Positions 9,551 through 42,243 of a stretch of DNA of 51,289 nt are shown here, piece after piece. How positions within the stretch are numbered: position 1 is the first letter of the stretch; every line of letters starts with the position of its first letter. This DNA comes from a virus (Duplodnaviria; Caudoviricetes), in IMG/VR virus record IMGVR_UViG_3300018062_000001, positions 1-51,289 of that record; one strand, 5' to 3'. Under the pieces are notes generated by a model. The model searched no databases. It was not told where the DNA came from and worked only from the letters and a program-made list of their open reading frames with translations. The translations under genes and the position numbers were made by a program.

Positions 9551-9728
9551 ACATCCAGATTTAGATCAAGTATTTCATGCCTGTCATTTAATACAATATT
9601 GTAATGATGCATTAAAAATATTTGAGTCTAAAATACATAAAGAGTCAAATGATAAATTATTTATTATGGTCGGTGTACTAGATTGGGTAACTGAATTACA
9701 CAGATTAATATATGTCTCTAATAAATAA
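9537..9728 (+). CDS. Hypothetical protein
   Basis: Overlap-coupled ORF. Confidence 0.55.
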   Translation: MELIKHPDLDQVFHACHLIQYCNDALKIFESKIHKESNDKLFIMVGVLDWVTELHRLIYVSNK

Positions 9729-16128: not shown

Positions 16129-16686
16129 ATGGAGAATAATGAGAGAGAGTGGGGAATAATAGCCGAAAAACATGCAATACGTCCAATACATGATCGTGTT
16201 CTTATTCTTATTGATCCAATAAAAACACATTATGATTGTAAGGATTGCCTTGGAAAAGGGCACACAGATGAAATTTGTCCTAATTGTAATGGTACAAAAT
16301 TAGAACCAAGACACTCAAAAGATTCAGAACCGGAGGCTTGTAGAGACTGTACATTTTCTGGTGAAGTAACTAGAACATATGGATATAGAATATGTCCAGT
16401 ATGTAAAGGACGTAAAGGGATTATTGCTATTCCCGAGAATGCTCTAAAAAGACCTCTTACTGGTAAAATAATTTCTATAGGACAAAAGGTGGAATATTTT
16501 AAAGTCGGAAATCATGTTATATTCACTACATTTACTGGAACTGAATTTGAAATAGAAGGAATACCATTAAGAATTGCTGTTGAAAAAGATATTATTGGAG
16601 AATATAAAGCTCTTACTAAAGATGCTACACAAGATAAAATACAAGAAGAAAAATACGAAGAATTAAGTGATTTGGGAGTTGAATAA
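16129..16686 (+). CDS. groES: GroES-like co-chaperonin with inserted DnaJ-type Cys-rich zinc finger
   Basis: IRPIHDRVLI ... GIIAIPE ... GKIISIG ... KVGNHVIF ... EKDIIG; four CxxC(xGxG) units in between. Confidence 0.85.
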   Translation: MENNEREWGIIAEKHAIRPIHDRVLILIDPIKTHYDCKDCLGKGHTDEICPNCNGTKLEPRHSKDSEPEACRDCTFSGEVTRTYGYRICPVCKGRKGIIAIPENALKRPLTGKIISIGQKVEYFKVGNHVIFTTFTGTEFEIEGIPLRIAVEKDIIGEYKALTKDATQDKIQEEKYEELSDLGVE

Positions 16687-16973: not shown

Positions 16974-18953
16974 TTATGTGCCAATACAAAATCCATTAAG
17001 AGTATCTGTACCTGTCCCTGTAAGAGCAAAAGCACTTCCAGAGGAGGGAACAAATTTTATAGCGGCTGCACTATTATTATCAAAGCCACTACAATAATAA
17101 GTTGAAGAATTAGTATAAACAGCAGAACCAGAAAGAGTAATATTACAAGAAGTTCCTAATATACAACTCCAAACAACTATATGTGGATTAATAACTTGAG
17201 TTCCATTAATTGTATAAGCAAGCGGAGAGGTTGTTAAATTTGTAACTGGAGTGGTACTTGTAATAGAAAATGGTGTTGTACCCGTAGCAAGTGTAGATAC
17301 TATTTGAGATATTGTTGTAATAGTTCCAGAAGCATTAATATTTGCTACAGGTGTCCCACAATTTGTACTATTACCACAAAAATAAACAATACTACCAGTT
17401 CCAGCACCTACCATAAATTTTACAGAAGCAGTACCAGCAGCATTAATTTGGGTATCACCATTTCCAGATGACGGAGCTATAAGATTAATTCTATTAACTG
17501 TTCCATCACTAATAAAGAGATTATCACCAGTAGAAGTATTTCCAGTAATTTTCCATTTAATTGAGTTCTGATCCGAAAAAGCGATACTAACTGGTTTACC
17601 AGCACTACAAGACGGACATGTAGGATATAAATTATCTAAAACGAGAATATTATCATTTCCGGCGTCATCTCTATTAAGATGAAACCCATATCCGCCCGAC
17701 TGCCAACCACCTTGCATTACTGCTACTCTTTGCCAATTAGATGCACTTCTATTATTTGAAGTCCATAATGTTCCAATACCACCAGCATAATTACCAGTGG
17801 TGGATATTATTGATGCTGTAGCATTTAAATCTCCATTTTGTGCATTACTATTAAATACTGCATTTTCAGCACCTACAGACAAATCAAATTCTACTGTTCT
17901 ACAGGGGCCACGATTAGAAAGTCCAAAACATATTGCTACACCATTAATTGCCTCTATCCCACCAGAATATGATGGAGATGATAAATTTAATCCTTCTGTT
18001 CTATTTGCATTAACAAATAATAAAGCAGATTCATTTCCAGTCGCAACCCCACCTGGACAACTATAAGTAGTACCGTCCCAAAAACAACCTTGTATTAAAT
18101 AAGGAAATGTAAAATTTCCATTATTTCCAGTAATACTATAACTTTCAAAATGACTTGTATTTACAGTTCCTTGTCCAAATGCACCTACTTGTTGATTTTG
18201 CCATTGATCTGACAATGATAAAAATGTATAACTTCCTTGCGGTGGTGTTATAGTTTCATTAGTAAATAAACCAATATTAGGAGTAATATCTCCTATCGGT
18301 CCTTGTATATGTGTAAAAACTCCTGCATTGGGAGTAACAGAACCAATAGAACCGGGACTTCCCCAATTAGCGCTAGAAATTGAAGTAAATCCCGAACCAT
18401 TACAAGTAAGATTAACACATTGACGAAAAGAACTATCAGTTGTTCTTACATACATACCACCTATACCAGTATTAACTTCTGCATCAGAATAAGCATATCC
18501 TATTACTGGATTAGGATTAATTACAGGTGGAATTACTTGATTACTAAATATTGTACTTAAATTCATACTGCTACCAGTTATAACAATAGCAATCATCTGA
18601 GAACAAGCACGAACACTAGCCTGTGGACAAATAGTAAATTGCCATTTACTTCCGCTTGGTAAGATACCATTTATATTATCATCAAGAGTTACTGATAAAG
18701 TTCCAGAAGAGTTAATAGAACCTGTAATTAATCCACCACCTTGTAATGAATGGCCTTGATTTGTGAATGGACCTGGAATATTCGGGGTTGCTATAAATTG
18801 AACAGAATAAGAACCATTATTCCAAGTTTGTCCCTGAGAATCTGTTATAGTTGCAGTTACTGATGTAAGTATTTGAGCTTTAGATATATTAAGGCCCAAA
18901 AGCAATAGGCTCATCAAGATCAAGAATTGCTTGTTCATATTCCCGCCAATCAA
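16974..18953 (-). CDS. Tail fibre/adhesin-like protein with signal peptide (start likely MNKQF, 18938)
   Basis: G/S/T/N-rich beta-type sequence with Cys pairs; MNKQFLILMSLLLLGLNISKA-Q. Confidence 0.7.
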   Translation of the reverse strand: MIGGNMNKQFLILMSLLLLGLNISKAQILTSVTATITDSQGQTWNNGSYSVQFIATPNIPGPFTNQGHSLQGGGLITGSINSSGTLSVTLDDNINGILPSGSKWQFTICPQASVRACSQMIAIVITGSSMNLSTIFSNQVIPPVINPNPVIGYAYSDAEVNTGIGGMYVRTTDSSFRQCVNLTCNGSGFTSISSANWGSPGSIGSVTPNAGVFTHIQGPIGDITPNIGLFTNETITPPQGSYTFLSLSDQWQNQQVGAFGQGTVNTSHFESYSITGNNGNFTFPYLIQGCFWDGTTYSCPGGVATGNESALLFVNANRTEGLNLSSPSYSGGIEAINGVAICFGLSNRGPCRTVEFDLSVGAENAVFNSNAQNGDLNATASIISTTGNYAGGIGTLWTSNNRSASNWQRVAVMQGGWQSGGYGFHLNRDDAGNDNILVLDNLYPTCPSCSAGKPVSIAFSDQNSIKWKITGNTSTGDNLFISDGTVNRINLIAPSSGNGDTQINAAGTASVKFMVGAGTGSIVYFCGNSTNCGTPVANINASGTITTISQIVSTLATGTTPFSITSTTPVTNLTTSPLAYTINGTQVINPHIVVWSCILGTSCNITLSGSAVYTNSSTYYCSGFDNNSAAAIKFVPSSGSAFALTGTGTDTLNGFCIGT

Positions 18954-19290
18954 TATTCATTTCTATTGCAAGTAATTTTTCTATAAAAGTTGCAAATACA
19001 TGTTCTTTATGATATGGAGCAAGAGGAGAATCTCCGGGTTCTGATATATCATATTTTAATCTTCTAGTTTCATATTCTTTATCAAATGCTGTAATAACTT
19101 CTTCTCTTATTCCTTTTCTTCTAGTAAGAAATTCTTCTATCTGTTCATGTATAGAAACAAGAAATTCATATTCTTCTTTATGCATTCTACTAATACGAAA
19201 TTGTTTTACTCCGGCGTAATCATAATAATCGCCAACAGTACAATATCTCTGTTGATTATGTGGAATAGTCTTTATTTCATTGTGAATCAT
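18889..19290 (-). CDS. Phage protein with HExxE putative metal-binding motif
   Basis: QRY.TVGDY, IHEQIE, EPGDSPLAPYHKEH. Confidence 0.7.
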   Translation of the reverse strand: MIHNEIKTIPHNQQRYCTVGDYYDYAGVKQFRISRMHKEEYEFLVSIHEQIEEFLTRRKGIREEVITAFDKEYETRRLKYDISEPGDSPLAPYHKEHVFATFIEKLLAIEMNIDWREYEQAILDLDEPIAFGP

Positions 19291-19299
19291 AATATTATC

Positions 19300-19704
19300 C
19301 TATCTAAGCCAACTTAAAACTTGATTTTGTTTAATTTTAGATAAGAATTGAAATATGGTTAATCCAATTCCTAATGCTCATGAACCATAAACAGTCCATT
19401 CATATTGATCTTTATGTTTAATATTTTGTTTATTTCTATATCTAATTCGTATTCTACCGCCAAATATTTCTTTTAATTTATCTATTGGTTCTTTATTTAC
19501 TTGTGCAAGAAATATACGAATTGCACCATTAATTTTATGTTTACTAATACATCCTTCTCCTTCGATAAATCCTGCTGCCCAACAAATATCTTTAGTAGTT
19601 ATATTTCTTATAGCTTTATTTCCACCATCTCGTCTAATTCGATGAATGAATACAGTTCCAGGTTCTATAATAATATTCTTTCTATAGTCAATCATTTCAA
19701 CCAC
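19300..19704 (-). pseudogene. LAGLIDADG homing endonuclease with in-frame TGA at 19378-19380
   Basis: WAAGFIEGEGCI motif; frame continues for 25 codons after TGA to TAG at 19300. Confidence 0.7.
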
Positions 19705-20984
19705 CCATGTCTTGCCAAAATCTCATATCTTTTTATACATTTTTCCTCAAGATCAGTTCGATATTGCATGTCTGGTATTTGAATTTTTTTTAATTTTTCT
19801 CCCAACTTTCCAAATGCCTTTTGCGGTGTGTAGTCGGCTTGAATAGGAACGCCGATAAGACCAGACACACCAAGGCTATACAACTCACTAGATTTATCAA
19901 GATAGCAATCATATAAAAAACAATTTTTAATAATATCATCTTCTTCTATTCCTTCAATAGGTACATCACTTCTTAAAATTTTTTCATCTTTAGTTTCCGT
20001 AGGATATGGAGGAATAGATAGACGAACGCCAACAGCAAAAGTAGAATCAATATTATAATTAGGAGTATTCCCCGAAGCAATATCAAAAAGAAATTCACCA
20101 AGGTCTGAACTAATACAAGAAAAAATTGTAGCACTTGCATCATAACCAAATCTTGGTGTCCACTCTAGTCCATATAATTCTGAATCAGTTACTATAGAAT
20201 TAAGATCAAGCATTCCTCTATAATTATATTGTTGAAGAAATGATTTTAATTTTCCAAGACCTTCTCTAAATATATAAGGTCTATTTGCAGGAAGATCGTC
20301 ATAAAGCCAAACAAGATTACCAGCACAACCAGTATTAGGACCAACTCCATCATTCATTAATTTCTTTTCTTCTATAGTCCCATTTATTAAATAGAAATTT
20401 TCTCCATTAAAGTATCCCTCTGTAGAGATTTCAGTTCCTTCAACAAATTCTTGTAATATAAAAGTTGCCCCTTTAGAGAGACTTCCAAGCCTGTCAATAT
20501 ATTTAAGTAAGTCCTCTGCGCTTTTAGAGACATATGTTGTGGCTGTATCTTGTTCTTGTCCACCGAAAGGTTTAAAAACATATCGTTTATTTGTTTTTCT
20601 AATAAATTTCTTTGCAGCGTTAAGTTCCTCAAAGACTTCATATTCTGGCACCTTTATATCACATTCTTCCATTACCTCTATTCCAAATAGACGATTATCT
20701 TCAAGCTCAGAATTTAAATCCCCATCTCCAATACAAGGTATATTTTTAGCAATACAAGTCTCCGCTAATTTTGGATGACCAGTAAGATCAAATAAAACAA
20801 GATCATATTTTGTAATGTCTGGTAAAGACAACAAGGGTTGCTTTATCAACCCTTGTAAAATGTATTTAAGATTTTTATTTTCTTTTTGATCTAAATAAAT
20901 ATCGACAGAATGACCTTCAGCCTCTAATCTAATAGAGAACCAAGCACCATACATTGAATATGTACAAATAAGTATTTTTGCCAT
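19692..20984 (-). CDS. PurD (GAR synthetase)-like ATP-grasp ligase
   Basis: LEDNRLFG, YVFKP, LQEFVEGTEIS, EKKLMNDGVGPNTG, LEWTPRFG. Confidence 0.85.
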   Translation of the reverse strand: MAKILICTYSMYGAWFSIRLEAEGHSVDIYLDQKENKNLKYILQGLIKQPLLSLPDITKYDLVLFDLTGHPKLAETCIAKNIPCIGDGDLNSELEDNRLFGIEVMEECDIKVPEYEVFEELNAAKKFIRKTNKRYVFKPFGGQEQDTATTYVSKSAEDLLKYIDRLGSLSKGATFILQEFVEGTEISTEGYFNGENFYLINGTIEEKKLMNDGVGPNTGCAGNLVWLYDDLPANRPYIFREGLGKLKSFLQQYNYRGMLDLNSIVTDSELYGLEWTPRFGYDASATIFSCISSDLGEFLFDIASGNTPNYNIDSTFAVGVRLSIPPYPTETKDEKILRSDVPIEGIEEDDIIKNCFLYDCYLDKSSELYSLGVSGLIGVPIQADYTPQKAFGKLGEKLKKIQIPDMQYRTDLEEKCIKRYEILARHGWLK

Positions 20985-21003
20985 TCATTTGATAAAAATA
21001 TTA

Positions 21004-21213
21004 TTAATATGGTGATGTCCATCCTGCAATATTTGGATTCCCACTTGCATGTTTCTTCTTCTTACTTTTTCCAGCCTTAGACATAGCAATAGCTATAGCT
21101 TGTTCTTGTGGTTTACCTGAGTGCATTTCTGTTTTTATATTTTCAGAGATAACTTTTTTACTCTTTCCTTTCTTTAAAGGCATAGTAACTCCTGTAAAAT
21201 TATTTCTAATCAT
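21004..21213 (-). CDS. Small basic phage protein (start likely MPLKKG, 21183)
   Basis: [33 protein letters not shown], a pattern common in phages. Confidence 0.75.
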
Positions 21214-21237
21214 AATATAAAAAGATTAAAAATAAAA

Positions 21238-21477
21238 TTATTTTGCATGACTATGAGGAAGATTTAAATTAGTTTTCTTTTTTGATTTTCTGATATCTGC
21301 CCAATCAGCTCCTTTTTGCATTCCTGTATTAACAACTTCATCTGTACTTGTTGTTATAACACCAGAAGAACCACCACCAATTCCCACTGGTGGACCAGAA
21401 TCATGTCCACCATCATGTCCTACCTTATGAATTGCTTCCTTAACTTCTTGAGTCGTATGAAAATGCGGTGCTACCAT
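21238..21477 (-). CDS. Small Gly/His-rich hypothetical protein
   Basis: AAGGAG RBS. Confidence 0.65.
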   Translation of the reverse strand: MVAPHFHTTQEVKEAIHKVGHDGGHDSGPPVGIGGGSSGVITTSTDEVVNTGMQKGADWADIRKSKKKTNLNLPHSHAK

Positions 21478-21494
21478 TATATTTCTCCTTTTTA

Positions 21495-21872
21495 TTAATC
21501 TACCGTACCCGACAACGATGTTGGTGTTGGTGTTGTGATATTTGGCACTGCTATTTGTACCTCAGTATCGCAGGCACTTTCACCTCCAGTCGCTGAGTTT
21601 ACTGCACTAACATTATAATTATATGTTGTGCCCAACGTCACATTTGTATCCGTATAACCAAGAGCAACTATACCTGTAGCATACGGAACTGGATTATTAA
21701 CTCCGGTACAAGCATTACCACCTACAGCACGATAAATATTATATGTACATCCTGTCGTACATGTATCATTCCATGTTAAAACAACAGTATGCTTACCGGG
21801 ATTATTTGCTAAACTTCTCACTCCAGAAAAGAAAAACAAGCTCAATACGATTAGCAGTATAAGTTTTTTCAT
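21495..21872 (-). CDS. Secreted fibronectin type III-like protein
   Basis: Signal peptide; VVLTW, YNIYR, YTDTNV..GTTYNYNVSAVN..ES. Confidence 0.8.
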   Translation of the reverse strand: MKKLILLIVLSLFFFSGVRSLANNPGKHTVVLTWNDTCTTGCTYNIYRAVGGNACTGVNNPVPYATGIVALGYTDTNVTLGTTYNYNVSAVNSATGGESACDTEVQIAVPNITTPTPTSLSGTVD

Positions 21873-22032
21873 AAATTTTACTTAGTATTTGTTTTAAATA
21901 GTCTTTTGATATATTAAGTCTAAATACTATTGCATCTAAAGACCAACCAAGAGCACTTAATTCACATATTTCATATTCCTTGCCAGAAAGTTCAGAGCAT
22001 TTTTTATATTCATCTTTATTTAATTTTATTAT
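21802..22032 (-). CDS. LuxR/GerE-type HTH protein with non-canonical (ATA) start, absent from ORF track
   Basis: Manual translation IIKLNKDEYKKCSELSGKEYEICELSALGWSLDAIVFRLNISKDYLKQILSKIYEKTYTANRIELVFLFWSEKFSK; AAGGAG at 22043-22038. Confidence 0.65.
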   Translation of the reverse strand: MIKLNKDEYKKCSELSGKEYEICELSALGWSLDAIVFRLNISKDYLKQILSKIYEKTYTANRIELVFLFWSEKFSK

Positions 22033-23537
22033 TTATTCTCCTTTTCTAATTGTTCCAATTTTTGTTTTTCTAATTCATATTCATTATTAGCTTTATCAAC
22101 TTGGATTTTAAATATATTATATGCAGCCTTTGTAGCAGCAGGAAGATTTTTACCTTGTGCTCTTATATAACTTTCATAAGCCTCAACACCTTCTGTAGAT
22201 GTTATAATACGAGCAGCGGTATTTAAAACTCCTGCTTCTAATGCAATCTTTCCCATACCACCAGCAGACATGGCACCTCTAAATGGACCAAGAACAAATA
22301 CAAGATTCATAAAACGACCAACAAAAGAACTTTGATCACCAGTAGTATGAGCAATAAGTTTCTCAAATTTTTCTATAGCCTCATATTGCTTTGAAGTAAA
22401 TATTGTTTTAAGTCTATCTTCTCCAATCTTATCAAGAGCAGCAGTAAATCTTTTTCCAAGAAATCTTTCAGATAATTCAGGTGCTCTTTTAAGTGTTGGG
22501 TCTTTGCTTCCTCTTAAAGTTTGTTCTATAACATCATATACTATTCTTGTTCTAGCAGCTTCTATAGCATGAAATTGATCTGTACCAGAAAATAATTTAA
22601 TTAAATCTCTAATTTCCTCATGTCCGAATTTGGGACTAACTAAAGCTCCAGATAATTGTTCTACATTTTTAGACTTCATTATTGTACCAAGAAGTCCTTT
22701 TGCAAATGGTTTCTCTACATATTTTTCAAGCATAGCTGCTGCATTCTGCGGAGACATTTTACTTAATTGTGGAGCTAATTTAGCAATGGCAGCTTTCTTA
22801 GCAGCTTTAGTCGCATCTTGTAATAATACTCCAAACTCTTCTGGAGTTCCTTTAAATTTTGATAAAGCATTTGCAATGGTTTCAGCACCTTTAGTAATTG
22901 CCTCTGCCTGACCAGTATAAAATTCTTTCATTTTTCCAGCAGAAGGAATTAGATTAGTCATTAACTGTTCAAAATAACGAGAAAGACCACCATTCACTTC
23001 ACTTGGTAATAAAGGAATTTTTATTTTACTAAGAACTTTTCCAGTTCCAACTGTAAATTCTTGAGCATGTGGTATTTTAGAAAGTAATTTTAAAATAGCA
23101 GAACCAACAGGTTCAGCTTCTGTAATACCAATTTTCTCAAGACCACCACCCATCGCTATTAAACCACCTTCCGTAAGCCATTTAGATTCTTTTCCAAGAT
23201 AATCTTTTTGTATTTTTTGCCAATCTTCTTTAGTTAGTTTCGCAGCATCTTCTTTAGAAATATTTAAAAATTCATGTGGCTGTCTTTGTAAAGCAGAAGA
23301 TACAATTCGTTGACGAACTTGATTTTCTGCTAGTTTAGCATTATTAGGTAGTTTAGTTTGTTTTGATTCTGTAGTAATTATAGAGTCTTGTTTTTTAATT
23401 CCTTTCTTATTAAACCAATCTTTAGCTTGTTGAACAGTTGTTCCTGATTTAAAAGTATATAATTTTCCATCTGGTCCTATACCTTTAAGTGGTTTAGTAG
23501 GGTCGGGAGCAGTTATTTGTTGTATTCCATTTGACAT
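22029..23537 (-). CDS. Putative internal virion (ejection) protein
   Basis: Helical Ala/Lys-rich; third gene of a cluster after the tail genes. Confidence 0.6.
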   Translation of the reverse strand: MSNGIQQITAPDPTKPLKGIGPDGKLYTFKSGTTVQQAKDWFNKKGIKKQDSIITTESKQTKLPNNAKLAENQVRQRIVSSALQRQPHEFLNISKEDAAKLTKEDWQKIQKDYLGKESKWLTEGGLIAMGGGLEKIGITEAEPVGSAILKLLSKIPHAQEFTVGTGKVLSKIKIPLLPSEVNGGLSRYFEQLMTNLIPSAGKMKEFYTGQAEAITKGAETIANALSKFKGTPEEFGVLLQDATKAAKKAAIAKLAPQLSKMSPQNAAAMLEKYVEKPFAKGLLGTIMKSKNVEQLSGALVSPKFGHEEIRDLIKLFSGTDQFHAIEAARTRIVYDVIEQTLRGSKDPTLKRAPELSERFLGKRFTAALDKIGEDRLKTIFTSKQYEAIEKFEKLIAHTTGDQSSFVGRFMNLVFVLGPFRGAMSAGGMGKIALEAGVLNTAARIITSTEGVEAYESYIRAQGKNLPAATKAAYNIFKIQVDKANNEYELEKQKLEQLEKENK

Positions 23538-23549
23538 AAAAATATTAAA

Positions 23550-24896
23550 CTATTGAGGCGTAGCCTCTTCACTAAAATTAAAATTAATATCTCCACCAGT
23601 ATTTATAGGAGTGGTATCTTTTTCAGTATCTATTGGAGCAGTATCACTTCCAGTATCAGGAGTCTGAATATTTGATAAAGCACCAACAGCTCCTTTTAAC
23701 ATACCAGAAGCATCCATATATTTAATTTGACTTTGTACATTTTGCCATGCTTTACTTTGAATTTCTAAATCTTGCTGTGCTTTCATCATCTGTAATTGTA
23801 AATCTTTTATCTGAGCACTAGGCATTCCACCTTTTTTAAAATCAAACCAACCTGGATTACTTTCTATATCTTTACTTAATTTTTCAATTAAATCTTGATC
23901 TGTTTTAATTTTATTTTGAATTTCTGTAGCATTTTGATGCACAGATTTTATTAATTCAGATGCACCTTTTACATCTGTTAATTTATTAATTGCATCTACT
24001 CTTAATTTAACAGCTTGAAACATTCTATCCGCACGATATTTTATTCCCTGTAAAGTTAATTGAGCACGATCTTGCAAAGACATATCTCGTTCAATAGCGG
24101 AAGCAACTTGAGCATCAACTCCATATTTTTTAGACTCTGCGATTAATTTAGCAGCATCTGCAATAGCCGTTGTTCTTGCTTGATAATCCTTAGATTTTTG
24201 AACAGCTTCTTTAGATTTTTGAAGTGATTCTAATACTTTATTTGCTTCTGGCAAAATCTTTGCTTGTATTAACTGAGCACGCAAAGCAAGTCTTGGATCA
24301 ATTTGTTGTCTCTGTGGCATTTGTCCAAGTATTCTTTGTGCATTAGGATTTAATGGAGTTTCTCCCTTTTGTTGTTTTTGTGCGAATGTCTTATACGCAT
24401 TGAATAATGCTTGATTCTCAAGTTTATTTTTCCCACCACCGAGTAAATCAATATTGAATGCTTTAGCAATAAGTTTCGATTTCTTTGGGTCTTTTGTAAT
24501 ATCATTTATAATCTCAGCATTTTTTTGATATGCCTCTTTATTTCCTGCTGTCTGTGCTTCTTGCATTCCCTGCCATGCAGATATTAATCTTTCAATATCC
24601 ATCTCAAGAGCACGTTGTTTTTTCTGTTGAATATAACTCGTACCACTTTTTACCATTTCTGCTATACCACTAAATATTCTTTGTCTATCATATCTTTTTC
24701 TTTCACCAGTAGTTGCAAAACTACCCCGACCGGGAGGATTTTGTTGTATTAAATTTTGTATTGGTGGTGGTTGATACATTACTGGCATTTTAGGTTGTTG
24801 CATTTGTGGTGCAAAACTAATAGCACTAGATAAATCTTGTTGTAAAGCACTACTAGCACCAAGAGCAAGAGAAGTATCAGTATTTCCATTTGCCAT
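23550..24896 (-). CDS. Putative internal virion (ejection) protein
   Basis: Gln/Ala-rich coiled coil; synteny. Confidence 0.6.
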   Translation of the reverse strand: MANGNTDTSLALGASSALQQDLSSAISFAPQMQQPKMPVMYQPPPIQNLIQQNPPGRGSFATTGERKRYDRQRIFSGIAEMVKSGTSYIQQKKQRALEMDIERLISAWQGMQEAQTAGNKEAYQKNAEIINDITKDPKKSKLIAKAFNIDLLGGGKNKLENQALFNAYKTFAQKQQKGETPLNPNAQRILGQMPQRQQIDPRLALRAQLIQAKILPEANKVLESLQKSKEAVQKSKDYQARTTAIADAAKLIAESKKYGVDAQVASAIERDMSLQDRAQLTLQGIKYRADRMFQAVKLRVDAINKLTDVKGASELIKSVHQNATEIQNKIKTDQDLIEKLSKDIESNPGWFDFKKGGMPSAQIKDLQLQMMKAQQDLEIQSKAWQNVQSQIKYMDASGMLKGAVGALSNIQTPDTGSDTAPIDTEKDTTPINTGGDINFNFSEEATPQ

Positions 24897-24909
24897 ATAA
24901 AATCCTATT

Positions 24910-25872
24910 TTATTGTGGTGCCTGTCCCGTTATCCAAGGTACTAAATTTGCATTATCTGGAACATCACCATAAATATATGGTGCTAATGAGGCAGGATCA
25001 AGTGGAGAACCACCTAAATCAGCACCAGCACTAATTGACTGAACATCTGGAAACCAAGACTCAGCAGAATAGTCTGGAGTATATCCTAAATTATTTTGTA
25101 AATTTCCATATGTTTGTGTACCAGCAGATAATCCTAAATTAGTTAATGCACCTAAAGAACTACCACCACCACCTTGCATATTTGAACCAGCTATTGTTCC
25201 TATTCCGGCACCTATTAACGGAATAGTAGCACCACCAGTAAAGGGAGCAGCAATAGCACCGCCAGCTACCTCAAGACCACCTAATATATCTCCTAAAATC
25301 CCACCACCACTAGCTTTTTCAGCATGAAGAGTTGGAAGAATACTTTGCAATAATCCTAATTGTTCTTGCTGTGAAGTTAAAAACATATTTGCAAGAGTCT
25401 GTTGTTCTTCAAGACCAAATTGACTTGCATAATTTCCTAATCCCAATGCAGCCGCACTTCCAAATCTTGAACCTTCAGCACCAAAAGCATTCTCAATACC
25501 AGCAACTCCTTGATTATATGCAGGTTGCATAGCATTAAGAAATGCAGAAGCAACAGAGGGATTAAATAAACCACCCTGTAATATATTCCAAAGAAGTCCT
25601 GCTGTTCCACTACCGAAAGCATTAGATAAACTTTTATAGAATTGATCTCCACTACCAGGACCATAACCTGCTGTAAATGGGAAACCACTTGACATTCCAG
25701 ATAAACTTGTTCCACCAAAAACAGGAGCATTAGCACTAGGAGTAGTAATACCAAATAAATTAGATTGTGGTGTCCCACCAGATGTAGAAGGTGGATTACC
25801 AACATTACCCGGTGTTGGTAAAGGCTGTGGAGCATTATTTCCACCAAATGCAAATATAGGAGAAGTTGCCAT
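24910..25872 (-). CDS. Putative DNA ejection/pilot protein
   Basis: Gly-rich with hydrophobic GGAIAAPFTGGATIPLIGAGIG segment. Confidence 0.65.
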   Translation of the reverse strand: MATSPIFAFGGNNAPQPLPTPGNVGNPPSTSGGTPQSNLFGITTPSANAPVFGGTSLSGMSSGFPFTAGYGPGSGDQFYKSLSNAFGSGTAGLLWNILQGGLFNPSVASAFLNAMQPAYNQGVAGIENAFGAEGSRFGSAAALGLGNYASQFGLEEQQTLANMFLTSQQEQLGLLQSILPTLHAEKASGGGILGDILGGLEVAGGAIAAPFTGGATIPLIGAGIGTIAGSNMQGGGGSSLGALTNLGLSAGTQTYGNLQNNLGYTPDYSAESWFPDVQSISAGADLGGSPLDPASLAPYIYGDVPDNANLVPWITGQAPQ

Positions 25873-25893
25873 AAAAATCCTTTTTAATCAACT

Positions 25894-26688
25894 CTAGGTA
25901 TATCTACGAACAACTGGTAATAATCTACGCTCATTATATGACATCATTCTTTCTTGTTGAGATTTTCTTGCCATTATAAGTCCCGGTATTTCATTACCAT
26001 ATTTATCTTTATATCCAAATAATTTTTGATGATATTTCATTCCTAAATCTGTCATACCTAATTGATCGCAAAGTTTTTCAGCAGTTGCATATTCTAATAT
26101 ATCTTGCCAGTCAATAGGCATAAATATTACTTGTTGTGCTAATAAATTATTATAATTACTATTTTGACTACTTAAATTAGCATCTGGAAATGGATGTTGT
26201 CTCTGATAACGCATTTGACAGGCATATGGATTATTTGGCATATTACCAACAATAATTACACCATTATTACGAGGTGTTCCATGAATACAATATACAGATG
26301 GTATTCCTTGTATTTTTGACATTGGCTCAACAACTCTAAGAGAGCGAGCCTTCATTTCCATTCCCATACTAACACCAGGAGTTACTACTCCAGATTGGTC
26401 ATAATAAACAAACCAAGATGTTATAAAAGTAAGAGCAACATCAGTATTTTCTATAAATGGATTCCCTGATATACCTAAAGGATCATATCCATTTAAGGGG
26501 TATTCTGCTATAGCATTTGGAGCAGATACAAAATTAGTTATAGCTCCAGTAATTTTTAATTCTTCAAATTCATAATTTTCTGTTAAATCAAGTATTGCAG
26601 CCTTCGCAGCAAATGGTATAGATGGAATAATATCATCTCGACCACGAAGTTTATTTACAACACCTTGATATAAATCTTGTATAATCAC
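25894..26688 (-). CDS. Head-tail adaptor / tail tubular protein A-like
   Basis: AILDL..YEFEEL, P.DWQDILEYATA; size and position. Confidence 0.6.
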   Translation of the reverse strand: MIIQDLYQGVVNKLRGRDDIIPSIPFAAKAAILDLTENYEFEELKITGAITNFVSAPNAIAEYPLNGYDPLGISGNPFIENTDVALTFITSWFVYYDQSGVVTPGVSMGMEMKARSLRVVEPMSKIQGIPSVYCIHGTPRNNGVIIVGNMPNNPYACQMRYQRQHPFPDANLSSQNSNYNNLLAQQVIFMPIDWQDILEYATAEKLCDQLGMTDLGMKYHQKLFGYKDKYGNEIPGLIMARKSQQERMMSYNERRLLPVVRRYT

Positions 26689-27095
26689 TAAATTCCACCA
26701 ATAAAAAATTCAACTAAAGCATTAGCAGCAGAAGGTGTTAATGTTAATGCTGATATACCAGGGGTATTACCAGAAGGATTTGTCCAAAATATAATTTGAT
26801 CCCCACTATTTAAAACTATAACAGTAGCAGAAGCTCCTCCATTTGGAGTCCAAGTTACAGTAACAGTTTTATTATTTGGATCAACATTTTTTATATATAC
26901 TTCCGCAGCTATTCCAGATGGAGTAGAAATAGCAATAACATTAGCACCAGCACTTAAATTGTGGTATCTTTCTAATTTTGCAATAGCACTATCAAAAGCA
27001 GGATTTCCAGTTCCAAAATTAATAGGAACATTTCCTGTTGTATCATCAGTAGCTACTATAGTTGCAATAAAAGCATTATTAGTATTTTGTCCCAT
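26688..27095 (-). CDS. Virion structural protein
   Basis: Beta-rich, VYIKNVD; in tail cluster. Confidence 0.6.
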   Translation of the reverse strand: MGQNTNNAFIATIVATDDTTGNVPINFGTGNPAFDSAIAKLERYHNLSAGANVIAISTPSGIAAEVYIKNVDPNNKTVTVTWTPNGGASATVIVLNSGDQIIFWTNPSGNTPGISALTLTPSAANALVEFFIGGI

Positions 27096-27108
27096 TTCAT
27101 TATCCTAG

Positions 27109-27486
27109 TTAATGAATATGTAAAATAAGTTTTGCATTATTTCCAGAAAATTTTATAAATATTTGTGTTTTAGTCCATGTAGTACCACTATCATACCAAA
27201 CACCAGATACATTAGAATATTTTAAATCAATTCCCATTGGTACTCTTCCTAAATTATGTATAACTATAAATTGTGTATTAGCACTTCCGCTATTAGGAAT
27301 CATTACTAATACACCATCTATATTATCACAATGTTTTGGACGAGTTTGAAAGCCTCCGGCTATTAATATAGTATCTGGAACTCCAAAACTAATTCCACCA
27401 TTTATAGCTTTCTCAACATCTTGATGAAATTTAAAACGTTCTTGTATACTTTGTATAAATGAATATGCAAGATGCCTTACTTGCAT
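27109..27486 (-). CDS. Tail-associated protein
   Basis: AINGGISFG, VIHNLGRVP motif. Confidence 0.6.
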   Translation of the reverse strand: MQVRHLAYSFIQSIQERFKFHQDVEKAINGGISFGVPDTILIAGGFQTRPKHCDNIDGVLVMIPNSGSANTQFIVIHNLGRVPMGIDLKYSNVSGVWYDSGTTWTKTQIFIKFSGNNAKLILHIH

Positions 27487-37123: not shown

Positions 37124-38167
37124 CTATGTGTGCATTCCTTCATTCATAGCTTCTAGTCCCTGTGTAAAAGCCATATCATCAGGACCAGATTCTTTTCTAA
37201 ATTGTTGATCTTTTTCCCATTCTTTATCAGACATATTATCAAGACCTGGGATATAAAATTCTACATTATGTCCAGCGGATTTCATACGTCTATATGCTGA
37301 TATAAGTTTTTCACCTTTATGAGCACCTTGTTCTACAACACCAGCATAAAGTTCATCATAAAATTGTTTTTGTGCTAATGAACGCGCTGTTTCTTGAAAA
37401 CGACCTACCATTCTAAGAGAAGCCATAATATTTCTCTTATAACGCGCCATAAGTACAAATACATTAATCTTCATTAAAATAACATCATACCATTTTATTT
37501 CAGAACCATGTAATGCAGAAGGCCATATAGGTGTCTTTTCAATATCTACATCATTAGGACCAGCATTTACAAAACCCAAAGCAGAATAATATTGATAATT
37601 ACCACCCTCATAATTTTTATAATTTACCCAATGAAAACGAATTTGAGGATCTTTTGGCTTTAAAAATAGAATACCTGGAATGATATCATCAGTTGCTTTA
37701 ATCCAAGGTATATCCATAATTTGAGACTCATTAAGACTTGCAGCAAATGAATCTAAGTCTTTTTTACTAGCAGGACGAGCGGTTTTACCAATATTTTCAA
37801 AACCACTTTGATTTACTGGTTGAGGAATAGCATATGATTCACTTGTCATTCCAGATGTTACTGTTGCTCTAGGACGAGCACCAACTTGAATATCTGGAGA
37901 AAAATCCTGAGGCTCTTCATTTTTAAGACTTGTTATAAAATCATGTACTTGTTTTTGCTCTTTAGATTCCGTTAATGTTTCTTGATTTGTTAATTTCTCA
38001 AATTGCTCTTTTGTATCTTTAGTAGAAAATGGAGCATCTTTTTTTACATGAATTTCAGAAGCAAGAGTAGAGCCACCATCTACAGCATCAGAGAGAGTTT
38101 TTTCAATATTTGATGCTGCTGCATTAATTACTTCTTTTGTAGGATTTTCATTAAATTTTTTTGCCAT
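37124..38167 (-). CDS. Head-associated hypothetical protein
   Basis: Between scaffold and capsid genes; FHWVN, DVILMK. Confidence 0.65.
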   Translation of the reverse strand: MAKKFNENPTKEVINAAASNIEKTLSDAVDGGSTLASEIHVKKDAPFSTKDTKEQFEKLTNQETLTESKEQKQVHDFITSLKNEEPQDFSPDIQVGARPRATVTSGMTSESYAIPQPVNQSGFENIGKTARPASKKDLDSFAASLNESQIMDIPWIKATDDIIPGILFLKPKDPQIRFHWVNYKNYEGGNYQYYSALGFVNAGPNDVDIEKTPIWPSALHGSEIKWYDVILMKINVFVLMARYKRNIMASLRMVGRFQETARSLAQKQFYDELYAGVVEQGAHKGEKLISAYRRMKSAGHNVEFYIPGLDNMSDKEWEKDQQFRKESGPDDMAFTQGLEAMNEGMHT

Positions 38168-38199
38168 ATATTTACCTTATAATTATATAATTTATAAAT

Positions 38200-39027
38200 T
38201 TATATAATCATAGCCCTCCCCTCTGATACCATAGCTGTCTGTTCTTTATACCATTCTTCTGGTGTCATACCATATCTTTTTGCCATAGCTAATTCATTAG
38301 CATCAAGACCAAAATTATTAGCTGCTGTTCTTTCTCCATCATTAGTACCTCTATTAGTATTAAGATTTGTACTCTCTACTCTAGAAGTACCACCACCCTG
38401 AATAAGATTAAATTTACCTTCTTTTTTAGCAGTATCTCGTTGAATTTCTGTAAAATGAGCACCCATTATAGAATCATGGACTTTCTTAATAACTATCTCC
38501 GGATCACTTCCCATTTGTACCAATAATTGAGGAGTATATCTTTTCCACTCCTCATCAATTTCAGATTTAATAGTTTCATTCTTAAATCCATCTAAAGTTG
38601 CTGTTGCATTTCTATATGCTAATGTACGCATAAAATTCATATTTTGAATACGACCATCCATAGCAACAGCAGTTGCAACTTTTCTAAGACCAGAAGCAGG
38701 ATCAGTTGCGAATTCTATCGGATCAATATCATCAAAAACTGTTTTATTTTTATTCCCGTTATCATTATTACGTTCACCAGAATTATTACCCGAGTTATTA
38801 TTTCCCTCATTATTTCCTTCACTGCTGGACCTAGATACAGAAGTAGTTGTCATTTTCGTCTCTAAAGCAGTAATCATATCTTTAATACTATTAATTCCAC
38901 CGTCAAATTTTTGCTCTACAGCAGTTAATTCTGCTTTAGTAACCGCACCACCAAGTTTACCCATAAAATCATCAATATCAAAACCAGCTTCTTTAAAATC
39001 TTCTTTTGTCATTTTTCCGAATGCCAT
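38200..39027 (-). CDS. Putative scaffolding protein
   Basis: Low-complexity N/G linker; C-terminal ELAMAKRYGMTPEEW. Confidence 0.65.
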   Translation of the reverse strand: MAFGKMTKEDFKEAGFDIDDFMGKLGGAVTKAELTAVEQKFDGGINSIKDMITALETKMTTTSVSRSSSEGNNEGNNNSGNNSGERNNDNGNKNKTVFDDIDPIEFATDPASGLRKVATAVAMDGRIQNMNFMRTLAYRNATATLDGFKNETIKSEIDEEWKRYTPQLLVQMGSDPEIVIKKVHDSIMGAHFTEIQRDTAKKEGKFNLIQGGGTSRVESTNLNTNRGTNDGERTAANNFGLDANELAMAKRYGMTPEEWYKEQTAMVSEGRAMII

Positions 39028-39061
39028 ATATTATTCTACTTATTTAGTAGCTCCTTTTATA

Positions 39062-39418
39062 TTATGATGCAGTTTTTCTCATTTTCTCTTCTATATCTCT
39101 TAATTTCTTTTGATTTTCTTCATATCTTTCTATCTCTTCCATAAATCCAAATACACCTCTTACACCAATAATTTGTCCACGAAGAATATCAGATTTATCT
39201 TTTCCAGTTCTATTATCATATGGAAATAATAATAATTGTTTATTTAATTCTTCACAACCATTATTGACGTAAAACTCCTCCAACATTTTCCATTCCGGCG
39301 ATTGCAAAAGTATTTTCAGACGTTCCTTGCTCTGGACTAATCTCTGAAATGCTTTGTTCTCCTTGAGTGATTCTACTTGTTTCTTGGTTATTTCCCACTG
39401 TGCGTTGTCCATTTGCAT
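39062..39418 (-). CDS. Small portal-adjacent protein
   Basis: LLQSPEWK...ILRGQIIG; overlaps the portal 3' end. Confidence 0.65.
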   Translation of the reverse strand: MQMDNAQWEITKKQVESLKENKAFQRLVQSKERLKILLQSPEWKMLEEFYVNNGCEELNKQLLLFPYDNRTGKDKSDILRGQIIGVRGVFGFMEEIERYEENQKKLRDIEEKMRKTAS

Positions 39419-41264
39419 TAGATTGGCTCCTTATTTGTTCTATAAATCTTAATTCTGGTTGCATTCTAGAAATATTATCATAACCAAACGCTCTTATAAG
39501 TTTAGTCATTATATATGCCTGAGCTTGAATACCACCAATAATTAATTCACGAAATTCAGGCATATCTTTCATCATTGGATTCATTATTGCCTGAGCCGCC
39601 TGATTAATAGATGCTATATGTCTTTCCATCACTTGAACAAAAAGCATCCCGGTTTGTTTTTCAACCTCTCTATTTATAGAAGCTGTAGCAGCTTTAATTG
39701 GAAGAGCAAGTTTTCCAAATTTAATAGATTGAAGAGCTTTTATTAATAGAGGCTTATTTGTACCGAATTTTCGTAACCTTTCATCTCCTACACCAAAATC
39801 TGCATATTGTCGTCCCATTTTATTACCAAGACCAAGATGAAGATAACGAAAATCAGTTACATTAATATTTACTCGACGAGTACCAGTTTGCATTAATGCA
39901 AATGTACCCTGGGCAGAATACTGTGGGCCTGATTTTGAAGAACCTTTTGTTGTTATTCCAGAACCAGTACCACTAGGAAGCCCTAAATCTGTACCAAATC
40001 TAGCTTTTGCAAGAGCGATTGTAAATTGTTCATCTGCTAGATTATCTACTGGCTGTGGACCTCCAAGTTGTTTTATATCAAAATCATCTGGATGAAATGG
40101 CAAACAGGCCATAGGAGTAATAGAAAATCCTGAATCTATTCTCATTCCTGCATATGATGTGCCTGTTAAGATGATAGATGTATTTTGTAGTAATTCATGG
40201 TCATTACGAGTATTATGTTGTGTTGAAACTTGTTCTTGATACATCTCTCCCATTTCAGCAAGACCATATCCAATTATACCATCGTCTGTATAACCAAGAC
40301 GACCAAACTCAAATGGTTCATCATTATCAGCATAAATATTGAAAATTGCTTTCATGCGAGTTTTAGTCGCATAGTGCATTGTATAAATAAGAGAATATTT
40401 TACATTATTTTGAGTATATTTAAACCAACACTCATAAAAATCCCATTCTGCTGTATTTTCATTAGGATTCCATCCAGTTATATTTTGATCTTGCAACTGT
40501 TCCGTTGTAGCAGTATCAAGACCTTGACGATCTGGAGTTCCTAATATCTTACGAGTAGAGTCATTATCATCAAATGCACCAGAATGAAATTTTTCTTCAA
40601 TTTGCCATTTCTTTAATTTATAAGGACCATGATATTTGAAATCTGCATCTTTAAACGTATTCGCAGTAGGAGTGGCGGCCCATTCTTGAATATTTAATTT
40701 TTCTGGTCTTGGGCCATCATATATAATCTTTTCTTCATAATTTGGTTTATTTCTATCTTCTGAGTTTATTCCTATTACTATAGCCTCCGTATTAGTAATC
40801 CAAGGTGCTTTTACAACAACCATTCCAAATTCTCCAATATCATTTGCAGCAAGACTCTCAACTCTCATAAGATCAAGTTCATCTTTAGAAAGAGCCATTA
40901 AATCCATAAAATCTTCATAAACTCTTCTTTGTTCTTCACCTTTTTCTGTTTCTAGCCAATCTCCAACTAATCCAGCTACCCAAATAGGAAGAACTTCATA
41001 AATTGAACCGATTTGTATAGCTTTAAGTATATCAATATTTTCGCCTATTAATTGTATAGCTGTATTAGATGCACCAGGCCAAGGAAATTCTTTAACTTTA
41101 TCTTTTGGTATTCCCTTTGCTAATCTACGCCACTTAGGAATTTTATTCTCATGTAAATCTTGAAAGGCAGCTTTAAGAGTTAGAATATTTTCATAGACAA
41201 ATTTGTCTAAAGAAATATTACCATCAACTCCAAAATCTACTGAGATTGGTTCTGTTAGAGGCAT
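39261..41264 (-). CDS. Portal protein
   Basis: 667 aa, FPWPGASN, FYECW, GIIGYGLAE; position after TerL. Confidence 0.8.
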   Translation of the reverse strand: MPLTEPISVDFGVDGNISLDKFVYENILTLKAAFQDLHENKIPKWRRLAKGIPKDKVKEFPWPGASNTAIQLIGENIDILKAIQIGSIYEVLPIWVAGLVGDWLETEKGEEQRRVYEDFMDLMALSKDELDLMRVESLAANDIGEFGMVVVKAPWITNTEAIVIGINSEDRNKPNYEEKIIYDGPRPEKLNIQEWAATPTANTFKDADFKYHGPYKLKKWQIEEKFHSGAFDDNDSTRKILGTPDRQGLDTATTEQLQDQNITGWNPNENTAEWDFYECWFKYTQNNVKYSLIYTMHYATKTRMKAIFNIYADNDEPFEFGRLGYTDDGIIGYGLAEMGEMYQEQVSTQHNTRNDHELLQNTSIILTGTSYAGMRIDSGFSITPMACLPFHPDDFDIKQLGGPQPVDNLADEQFTIALAKARFGTDLGLPSGTGSGITTKGSSKSGPQYSAQGTFALMQTGTRRVNINVTDFRYLHLGLGNKMGRQYADFGVGDERLRKFGTNKPLLIKALQSIKFGKLALPIKAATASINREVEKQTGMLFVQVMERHIASINQAAQAIMNPMMKDMPEFRELIIGGIQAQAYIMTKLIRAFGYDNISRMQPELRFIEQIRSQSNANGQRTVGNNQETSRITQGEQSISEISPEQGTSENTFAIAGMENVGGVLRQ

Positions 41265-41311
41265 TTTAATATTCTAATTAGTCCATATATTTATATGGAC
41301 TAAATATAAGA

Positions 41312-41905
41312 CTAAAAATGAAAATTAGGTCCAAAAGCAAATGATGGTGTCCATCTAGAATAGCCTGGAAAATTATTTGCTTGTATTTCTAATGCTAACC
41401 CAGTAGTAGCACTAAGTTTATAATTTATAAACATTCCAACACGCTCTCCCCAACGAGAAGAACCAGAAGAACCAACTGGTTTTACAACTCCAATACTACC
41501 AGTGGCTCCAAATTGAAATTGATAACCATTAAGAGATGGACTTAAATTATTTAATAGTTTTGATAGTGGTTGTATTAAATAATCTCCACGACCACCAGCA
41601 AATACAAATGTATTACTTAATAAACTGGTTGGACCACCATCAAAATTATTCGTAAATTGAACTTTACCGTCTGTTTCTGCACCTGTTAGAGAATTAAGTC
41701 CTGGTAAGTTTACTGGAGTTAAATTAAAATTAACTGTTGTTTCTGTAAAAGCACTTGTTGGTTGTGTTGTTGTTTGACATTTAGATACTGGTACTAAAAT
41801 ACCAAACATAAATGATAAAAATGCTACAACAAGAATCAAATTTCTAGTTTCTCTACTCATATCAGCTCCTTTATTGAGGTGGTTGTTGATTATGTGCATA
41901 TACAT
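41312..41905 (-). CDS. Signal-peptide outer-membrane beta-barrel-like protein (start likely MSRET, 41860)
   Basis: Signal peptide, amphipathic beta strands, C-terminal Phe (FAFGPNFHF). Confidence 0.6.
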   Translation of the reverse strand: MYMHIINNHLNKGADMSRETRNLILVVAFLSFMFGILVPVSKCQTTTQPTSAFTETTVNFNLTPVNLPGLNSLTGAETDGKVQFTNNFDGGPTSLLSNTFVFAGGRGDYLIQPLSKLLNNLSPSLNGYQFQFGATGSIGVVKPVGSSGSSRWGERVGMFINYKLSATTGLALEIQANNFPGYSRWTPSFAFGPNFHF

Positions 41906-42071
41906 GCAATAATGCCTGTGCTACTGCTACTACTCCTGCTACAACAGCCTGATAATGCCCAGATACTTGTGGCATTAATAGATTACCAACTTGTACAACT
42001 CCCATTAATATCTGTAATACTAAATGCCATGTTAATTTAAATTTCATTTTATTATAGCTCCTTTTTTCCAT
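41871..42071 (-). CDS. Holin-like two-TM protein (start likely 42047)
   Basis: Two hydrophobic segments in a small protein. Confidence 0.5.
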   Translation of the reverse strand: MEKRSYNKMKFKLTWHLVLQILMGVVQVGNLLMPQVSGHYQAVVAGVVAVAQALLHVYAHNQQPPQ

Positions 42072-42243
42072 TTCCTACTGGTTTATATTGTATTCCATGT
42101 TTAATACAATAATCTTGCCACATTTGATTTATACGTTCAATTAAAATTACATGCACTTTATATTGTTTCAATACTATAATTAAAACAGTTATAGTAGAAA
42201 CAACACTTATATGTCTTAAAACAAGATCATATGTAGTTTCCAT
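42052..42243 (-). CDS. Single-TM small protein (lysis-cassette-like)
   Basis: One TM segment followed by a charged tail. Confidence 0.5.
   Translation of the reverse strand: METTYDLVLRHISVVSTITVLIIVLKQYKVHVILIERINQMWQDYCIKHGIQYKPVGNGKKEL

Follow-up and report, generated by a model that had tools for sequence, protein, structure and literature searches.

Virions of tailed phages are taught to assemble in the reducing cytoplasm. Could some of their parts mature outside it? The question is raised by IMG/VR record IMGVR_UViG_3300018062_000001, a complete viral genome record, 51,289 bp long and bounded by direct terminal repeats (the whole of this stretch is called the window below). An earlier note on it had picked out five late-operon proteins with signal peptides, here named A to E (Table 1), and had seen three of them as virion-type proteins in the slots of tail fibre, tailspike, and decoration genes. 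We find that A, B, C, and E are very probably exported and oxidatively folded, judging by the conservation of their leaders and by the Cys counts of their relatives. That A, B, and C then mature as fibres in the periplasm and dock on the particle at lysis is a proposal we regard as evenly poised; its virion step would follow by analogy with other phages.

Conserved leaders and even cysteine counts

Leader calls were heuristic: an 11-residue Kyte-Doolittle mean of at least 2.2 within the first 45 residues, then inspection of the layout. The hydropathy filter flagged 13 of 80 non-overlapping open reading frames (ORFs). The full n-h-c layout (basic n-region, h-region of 10-15 residues, small residues at -3 and -1) was seen only in A to E and in an early protein of 87 amino acids (aa). 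All five late-operon ORFs of the earlier note are present, each on the minus strand, and Gln stands at the predicted +1 position in four of them (A, B, C, and D; not E). Probable true starts are the ATGs right before the n-regions (18938 in A, 32567 in B, and 41860 in D); the ATG of D is preceded by AAGGAG. The early 87-aa protein has a leader-like N-terminus and a second hydrophobic segment, and is possibly a membrane protein, for example of the superinfection-exclusion type.

Leader conservation had been set beforehand as a test of export. We built a profile (A1) from the domain that follows the cleavage site of B and searched 1.84 billion proteins with it, which returned 658 representative clusters with E<=1e-3, of which 366 passed E<=1e-10. 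This domain begins at about residue 20-60 in almost all of the 150 best clusters, whose proteins range in length from 128 to 1162 aa. An N-terminal hydrophobic leader was kept in 147 of the 149 best family representatives other than B, with a small-residue/Gln site just after it in 125; most members lacking the Gln keep the leader and have A/DG or A/P sites (a slash marks the predicted cleavage site). All five homologues of C likewise carry a leader with Gln at +1. For genomic comparison we retrieved 17 related loci with the portal protein (about 50% identity) and read two complete relatives, G001 and G002, in full; leaders are also present on their A-type, B-type, and post-capsid proteins. 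We checked whether the true starts might lie downstream of the hydrophobic segment. This is not credible for B and C, because the conserved domain follows the cleavage site directly and no further in-frame Met is met for about 90-120 residues, by which point the sequence is already conserved, so that such a start would delete the conserved domain.

Cysteine counts tell the same way. Of 132 family proteins with a predicted X/Q site, 124 carry an even Cys count in the mature chain and only 8 an odd one (binomial p ~7e-28). The control set, signal-less proteins no shorter than 120 aa from three complete genomes (the window, G001, and G002), gave 41 even counts, 49 odd counts, and 24 proteins without Cys. 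The count becomes even only after leader removal in B (27 to 26) and in C (7 to 6). Within the late region, Cys density has a median of 2.37% in the 6 leader-bearing proteins, versus 0.31% in the 16 others. These figures are strong evidence, at the level of sequence, that the family proteins are exported, cleaved, and fully disulfide-bonded. Export, cleavage by signal peptidase I, and disulfide folding are well supported because the leaders, the Gln site expected under the Bacteroidetes Q-rule, and the Cys parity are all conserved. We note that Bacteroidota O-glycosylation was considered and dropped: the motif D[ST][AILVMT] was not enriched (observed 0-3, expected 0.4-2.0).

Modular architecture and gene positions of A, B, and C

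A, B, and C are modular, each with a conserved N-terminal part and exchanged C-terminal parts that resemble sugar-binding or sugar-cutting domains, from which we infer that they are host-recognition appendages (tail spike or fibre, head fibre). In the B slot, after a conserved gene for a 98-aa protein, G001 and G002 encode leader-bearing proteins of 920 and 418 aa that have only the first ~120 mature residues in common with B. A word-indexed protein homologue search with B returned B itself only. Pfam and PHROGs gave nothing on B or C, and tblastn with the N-domain of B, with C, and with a post-capsid relative gave nothing against 50,697 phage records.

The N-domain of B was modelled by AlphaFold2 with a mean predicted local distance difference test score (pLDDT) of 86.6. 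Its top fold matches were XepA (Z 11.2), YomS (Z 10.7), and PirA (Z 10.2), followed by the cement proteins of phages Pam1, KHP40, and BPP-1 (Z 9.3-9.5, root-mean-square deviation 2.8-9.2) and a Klebsiella phage baseplate protein (Z 9.2). Foldseek placed the KHP40 cement protein, YomS, and the lambda tail tip at the top, with a best E of 1.4e-3. XepA, YomS, and the cement proteins thus resemble the eight-stranded jelly roll of B (Z 9.3-11.2) but have no sequence similarity to it, and middling scores of this kind could reflect no more than a fold that is widespread; the solved chains are not known to carry a leader. With Z scores only moderately above the tool background, the model shows a phage-typical jelly roll and nothing more. 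For the long remainder of B, the nearest ESM Atlas feature neighbours are pectate-lyase/beta-helix clusters (0.78-0.83, a lead-level score), and as a lead its Ser/Thr/Gly/Asn-rich region is possibly a beta-helix. Pfam found no family at E<=1e-4 in 69 of the 73 longest family members; sub-threshold matches were to K1-lyase_C in three and to GDSL in one.

C is encoded directly after the major capsid protein; in relatives this position is taken by N-domain proteins. A post-capsid protein with a leader, Gln at +1, and 9-12 Cys occurs in L002, L006, G001, and G002/L010, and not in L008, L012, or L013. Homologues of C have domains shuffled with those of B-type and post-capsid proteins: P0003 joins a B-type N-domain to the C-terminal half of C, and P0007 joins the N-terminal half of C to the C-terminal module of post-capsid proteins. 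Residues 145-330 of C resemble carbohydrate-binding modules (Z ~10), although the model is of low confidence (pLDDT 57.8) and its fold matches are therefore leads only.

A has no Pfam or PHROG family over the whole protein. Its residues 3-214 match a 1069-aa ORF in G001 (37% identity), and residues 25-218 match G002 (35%), where two adjoining leader-bearing ORFs of 762 and 854 aa have A-like N-terminal regions. At its other end, the C-terminal module matches the C-termini of gp48 of Burkholderia phage BgManors32, a 'tail protein' (E 5e-4 by tblastn and, within a small set, E 9e-12 by blastp), as well as that of Bcep1 gp51 (E 3e-8). The C-terminus of the leader-bearing post-capsid protein of G001 is reached through both Burkholderia proteins (E 5e-4 to 8e-4); the post-capsid protein of G002 aligns with the module by eye only. 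The last 80 aa of A match proteins annotated as fibres (also phrog_32740), the labels being annotation.

Each of the three complete genomes encodes four to six long, Cys-rich, leader-bearing proteins, and no other late protein in them is both long and variable. Among tail-module proteins without a signal, the longest are a conserved core protein of 447-452 aa and a protein of 163-220 aa; Cys-free proteins of 310-549 aa look like internal or ejection proteins. The earlier remark that no signal-less long fibre is apparent thus holds in all three. The two signal-less neighbours of B are conserved in relatives (57-68% identity for the 98-aa protein, 41-60% for the 220-aa protein) and are candidate docking partners. 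In L013, of a distant subgroup, a signal-less fibre-like protein of 640 aa occupies the 220-aa slot and B is missing. A 'split fibre' origin could not be demonstrated, as the 220-aa protein has no similarity to this 640-aa fibre or to the 163-aa protein in the G002 slot. A 130-aa protein with an uncleaved-looking N-terminal anchor, whose start overlaps the end of B by 19 nucleotides, is a possible periplasm-facing helper of B; in its slot G001 has a 507-aa leader-bearing protein with 12 Cys, and G002 has nothing. Architecture and synteny, together with the module that A has in common with fibre-annotated proteins, support the virion-type label for A, B, and C, which lie in fibre and post-capsid slots; D does not belong with them.

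D is a predicted outer-membrane barrel and E an FN3-like protein

D has no Cys in its mature chain, and the view of it as a Cys-rich virion-type protein was not borne out. Its ESM Atlas features lie at 0.96-0.97 to membrane and beta-barrel clusters. Structure matches were to PF13505, PagL, and OmpA_membrane/YfaZ, the last including a mostly viral cluster, and those to PF13505 and PagL passed the bar for naming. All three homologues (in L002, L004, and L006) end in GPNF[HRK]F. Going by these models, D is an outer-membrane beta-barrel and not a virion part. As it matches no Pfam family at E<=0.01 and no PHROG, we call it barrel-fold and probably barrel-like in function, and not a family member. 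D also lacks a lipobox Cys at +1: its predicted site puts Cys at -1 and Gln at +1, and G/Q or A/Q sites are seen in the homologues. Its closest known counterparts are phage-encoded outer-membrane barrels such as lambda Lom and the mostly viral OmpA_membrane/YfaZ cluster, which it resembles in its leader, small barrel model, C-terminal Phe, and place as an insert among late genes; it differs from them in having no Pfam family. We read D as a Lom-like protein acting on the host envelope, in a membrane or lysis cassette.

D and two small hydrophobic proteins (66 and 63 aa), a possible holin-like lysis or membrane cassette, sit between the terminase and portal genes. This slot is swappable. It holds small hydrophobic proteins and an outer-membrane barrel in the window, L002, L004, and L006, small membrane proteins and lipobox proteins in L003 and L007, and small membrane proteins along with proteins of about 197 aa that have a twin-arginine motif followed by a lipobox in L009/G001, L016, and L018. 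It is possibly a module for lysis or outer-membrane disruption.

E had been described as an FN3 protein. Its signal peptide stands, and the FN3 assignment rests on a match of modest significance to 3mpc_A, 'Fn3-like protein' (E 5.2e-5), and on phrog_4245 (E 5.8e-4); Pfam gave no match. A further, weak match (33 residues, E 3e-4) is to a leader-bearing 124-aa protein of G002 whose gene lies close to that of the terminase.

Leader-bearing late proteins of cultured phages

Phages of Cellulophaga baltica, a Bacteroidota host, encode runs of 300-850 aa late proteins with a Sec-type leader before Gln, in a late-gene block that follows the tail genes in phi10:1. The leader and Gln at +1 are present in gp091-094 of phi10:1 (4 of 4; KC821618) and gp085-087 of phi18:3 (3 of 3; KC821620), and the GenBank note on these seven proteins reads 'structural protein, annotation based on experimental MS/MS proteomics analysis' (MS/MS, tandem mass spectrometry). 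Leaders of the same kind are found on gp079-083 of phi46:3 (KC821622), four of which are called structural by similarity. In contrast to the window's proteins, to which they have no sequence similarity, the Cellulophaga proteins have no jelly-roll N-domain and are Cys-poor (0-4 Cys). They are, by analogy, a precedent for the route and not evidence on the window's family. We also observed that phi10:1 gp093 (L040 16101-18434) and phi46:3 gp080 (L043 1980-4511) have identical first 50 residues, leader included. The former is annotated as structural by MS/MS and the latter by similarity, and the two phages are long-tailed and short-tailed, respectively; this is exchange of the kind seen for host-range genes.

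Burkholderia phage proteins Bcep1 gp51 and BgManors32 gp48 are fibre-like tail-module proteins of 521-651 aa, with a leader cut before Gln, that end in the ~80-aa two-Cys module of A. The GenBank note on Bcep1 gp51, of 2003-era date, reads 'possible tail fiber; possible signal peptide domain'; it names relatives in Bcep43 and Bcep781, and BcepNY3 was matched. These phages differ from the window's in having contractile tails and a proteobacterial host, they have only the C-terminal module in common with A, and their fibre label is annotation.

Classical spikes and fibres of short-tailed phages, of the P22 gp9 and T7 gp17 type, have a conserved N-terminal particle-binding part and exchangeable receptor-binding or glycan-cutting parts, and they are among the most variable late genes. 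They are not known to have a signal peptide or to rely on disulfides, and their attachment to the particle is cytoplasmic. A, B, and C are like them in combining a conserved N-terminal part with swapped C-terminal parts, and unlike them in the leader and the disulfides.

Do the exported proteins join the particle?

The model we favour begins with its well-supported part: A, B, C, and E are very probably substrates of the Sec pathway and of signal peptidase I, which removes the leader. The new N-terminal Gln could cyclise, and every Cys would pair in the oxidising periplasm, where A, B, and C would be stockpiled; the head and tail core would be built in the cytoplasm. Holin lesions would then merge the two compartments, and A, B, and C would dock via their conserved N-terminal parts at or just before lysis. 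Pfam identified no cell-wall hydrolase among 34 late and 25 early proteins, a result that bears on this last step. We favour joining of the particle because of (i) the receptor-binding-protein-like build of A, B, and C; (ii) their being the sole long variable late proteins in three genomes; (iii) the conserved N-domain; (iv) the fibre-annotated module in A; and (v) the Cellulophaga precedent. Somewhat more tentatively, a large group of tailed phages may finish its particles across two compartments, sending spikes, fibres, and head fibres through Sec, cross-linking them with the disulfide machinery of the host periplasm, and docking them by the jelly roll when the holin opens the inner membrane; at 658 clusters, such a route would be widespread, and cultured Cellulophaga and Burkholderia phages have leader-bearing fibre-type proteins that are unrelated.

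Several points weigh against docking. Virion membership of A, B, and C is argued by analogy, the window's phage and its homologues being known from sequence alone, and the docking partners remain candidates. The seven Cellulophaga proteins detected by mass spectrometry have no homology to those of the window and contain few Cys (0-3); their detection in purified stock, for which the GenBank notes are the sole basis, may reflect co-purifying envelope material. The jelly-roll matches are middling (Z 9-11, with no Foldseek match at E<=1e-3), and the similarity scores behind a beta-helix in B are lead-level only. The distant subgroup L012-L014 has, in the stretch covered, no leader-bearing genes and a signal-less 640-aa fibre-like protein in their place. 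Moreover, leader-bearing genes behave partly like insertions, in slots that vary (for example, after the portal gene in L036). Nor does a conserved N-domain prove docking, because WceF of Pantoea stewartii, in the parts of PMC7949094 that describe it, is an exported tailspike fold that keeps a P22-type, head-binding-like N-terminal domain without a virion and acts on the bacterium's own exopolysaccharide. WceF differs from the window's proteins in being a bacterial gene in a polysaccharide cluster, with a Tat and not a Sec signal, no phage late operon, and, as far as those parts go, no family-wide N-domain.

The strongest alternative, which we consider possible but rather doubtful, is that A, B, and C are exported and never join the particle. 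They would be periplasmic or lysis-released proteins that bind or cut glycans and that trim, mask, or destroy the capsule, slime, or receptor polysaccharide of the host from the inside, thereby freeing progeny, preventing them from sticking to debris, or excluding superinfecting phages; the real receptor binder would be the signal-less 220- or 452-aa tail protein. The export and disulfide evidence fits this too, as do the carbohydrate-binding-module likeness of the C-terminal domain of C, the pectate-lyase-like feature clusters nearest to B, the sub-threshold K1-lyase_C (3) and GDSL (1) matches among the 73 longest members, the variable gene positions, and the absence of these genes from the L013 subgroup. 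WceF offers a precedent for a Tat-exported, tailspike-like exopolysaccharide enzyme (PMC7949094, in the parts noted above). The best fold match of B, XepA, comes like YomS from the lytic cassettes of Bacillus prophages. In Porphyromonas gingivalis prophages, the passages of PMC10367356 on five genes of unknown function report leaders predicted to expose Gln and read the proteins as host-surface modifiers; unlike the window's, these proteins are not described in those passages as occupying fibre slots, as modular, or as Cys-paired. If A, B, and C were such enzymes, however, three complete genomes would be left without a long or hypervariable receptor-binding candidate, and about 2,000 codons would be spent on accessory proteins. 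There is no evident reason for a free enzyme to keep an N-domain conserved over 658 clusters with everything downstream swapped, and non-homologous leader-bearing Cellulophaga proteins are found in virion preparations.

Display of the proteins on the infected cell or on vesicles, as decoys or adhesins that bind neighbour cells or soak up competing phages, is improbable. It would agree with the export evidence, with the lectin-like folds, with the phage's encoding of the barrel D, and with the lipoproteins that relatives encode in the same cassette, but there is no visible route across the outer membrane, because a lipobox Cys at +1 is missing from A, B, C, and E, neither a beta-barrel nor another membrane anchor occurs in A, B, or C, and Pfam at E<=0.01 found no type IX C-terminal sorting domain (Por_Secre_tail, PF18962) among 34 late proteins, a divergent domain being possible. 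Still less probable is that nothing is exported and that the leaders are uncleaved membrane tethers, assembly handles on cytoplasmic fibres, or mis-called starts, with the Cys pairing after release: textbook cytoplasmic assembly and the use of a heuristic in place of a dedicated signal-peptide predictor speak for this, against which stand the family-wide conservation of the n-h-c layout, the small -3/-1 residues, and the host-specific +1 Gln, the shift of the +1 residue as a block in sub-lineages (A/DG, A/P) as if tracking the host peptidase, the loss of conserved domain sequence from any downstream start, and a Cys parity in B and C that needs leader removal.

Some of this was already known, namely the Q-rule leaders on P. 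gingivalis prophage genes (in the same passages of PMC10367356) and the 'possible signal peptide' on the possible fibre of Bcep1. In our literature search we came across no account of tailed-phage virion fibres that are exported through Sec, and no discussion of the Cellulophaga leaders. New here are the family-wide leader and Cys-parity statistics, the post-cleavage jelly-roll domain with its 658 clusters, and the link to leader-bearing proteins of cultured phages detected by mass spectrometry. If docking after export is correct, a large phage group would have an extra final assembly step at lysis, and its fibres could bear pyroglutamate caps and disulfides, which may account for extracellular stability. 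A signal peptide has been argued as evidence against virion origin (PMC6199706); filters of this kind would then miss host-range determinants, and recombinant receptor-binding proteins of this type would require periplasmic expression. If the proteins act on glycans without joining the particle, they would form a large unrecognised class of phage-exported enzymes on host surface glycans.

Table 1. Positions and properties of the leader-bearing late proteins and of other features in the window (slash, predicted cleavage site)
Feature	Positions	Strand	Site	Mature Cys	Description
Protein A	16974..18953	-	SKA/Q	16	659 aa from TTG; conserved N-terminal ~215 aa, variable middle
A C-terminal module	16977..17216	-			~80 aa, one conserved Cys pair
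Protein B	29823..32573	-	SWA/Q	26	916 aa from TTG; N-terminal jelly roll, then long Ser/Thr/Gly/Asn-rich region
B N-domain	32139..32504	-			residues 24-145; eight-stranded jelly roll, two invariant Cys
Protein C	34338..35333	-	SFA/Q	6	331 aa; directly after major capsid protein gene; N-terminal beta domain, carbohydrate-binding-module-like jelly-roll C-terminal domain
Protein D	41312..41905	-	SKC/Q	0	197 aa; small outer-membrane beta-barrel (predicted), C-terminal Phe
Protein E	21495..21872	-	VRS/L or SLA/N	4	125 aa; signal peptide without Gln at +1; FN3-like
130-aa protein	29449..29841	-			N-terminal hydrophobic anchor, uncleaved-looking
98-aa protein	32583..32879	-			signal-less neighbour of B, conserved tail-module gene
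220-aa protein	32907..33569	-			signal-less neighbour of B, conserved tail-module gene
Two small hydrophobic proteins	41871..42243	-			66 and 63 aa; between terminase gene and D
Early 87-aa protein	5604..5867	+			leader-like N-terminus
3'-5' exonuclease	9712..10830	+			part of split family-A DNA polymerase
Polymerase	12216..13781	+			part of split family-A DNA polymerase
Cpn10 (GroES-like) protein	16129..16686	+			8 Cys, N-terminal extension
Homing endonuclease ORF	19378..19704	-			small, LAGLIDADG/HNH-type
ATP-grasp protein	19692..20984	-			GARS_A-like
103-aa protein	33579..33890	-			zinc-ribbon-like Cys/His pattern
103-aa protein	34004..34315	-			zinc-ribbon-like Cys/His pattern

Genome, host, and other genes of the window

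The window is a complete 51-kb genome of a podovirus-like (short-tailed) phage with a GC content of about 32%, in which no tRNA genes were found. Early and replication genes lie on the plus strand (FtsK-like ATPase, split family-A DNA polymerase, dCTP deaminase, DUF3987 protein, Cpn10-like protein) and late genes on the minus strand, where they start near 44187 and end at 16974. In the late set, phrog_38 identifies the large terminase (E 3e-38) and PF25209 a capsid protein of HK97 type (E 1.5e-10). A 667-aa late protein is the putative portal, so labelled from its size and position; it had no Pfam, PHROG, or Protein Data Bank (PDB) match, and PDB sequence searches with the capsid, portal, 452-aa, 264-aa, and 215-aa proteins returned nothing usable. 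The capsid protein is ~30% identical to capsids of assorted phages and the terminase barely matches anything, which by sequence sets this phage at a distance from cultured phages. The context of the N-domain family is phage-only: contigs bearing its members are at most 46-52 kb, and a search of 185,579 species genomes turned up no relatives of the portal.

Gln at +1 corresponds to the Bacteroidetes Q-rule, so the sequence points to a host in Bacteroidota or a close relative obeying that rule, although the host call is not firm. Weighing against it, Shine-Dalgarno-like 4-mers stand upstream of 37 of 80 ORFs, versus a 10% background, with G enriched at -14 to -9. Shine-Dalgarno motifs at such a frequency are unusual for Bacteroidota. 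One family member is labelled as coming from a Bacteroidia metagenome-assembled genome, on a 3.9-kb contig, which is weak host evidence. In the portions of PMC5837995 concerned with this rule, Q-values exceed 48% in 332 of 334 Bacteroidetes species and lie below 9% in most Chlorobi, with 77% in Ignavibacterium album; Ignavibacteria-like hosts, by the same portions, likewise follow the Q-rule.

Other genes of the window deserve brief mention. The late operon includes an ATP-grasp protein (E 1.9e-12 to GARS_A) with 62% identity to its counterparts in G001 and G002 and 34% to one in a distant lineage of 54% GC (L037), where it lies upstream of a leader-bearing N-domain protein. Between this gene and a gene for a 133-aa protein sits the homing endonuclease ORF (phrog_5046, E 3e-14), a place where G001 and G002 have other genes. 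The two 103-aa proteins belong to the structural module and are conserved in relatives. On the plus strand, the two genes of the apparently split polymerase are about 1.4 kb apart, with small ORFs in the gap. The Cpn10 protein matches PF00166 (E 4.7e-10), and two Cellulophaga phages, phi46:3 (gp092) and phi18:3 (gp080), likewise have a gene annotated as Cpn10.

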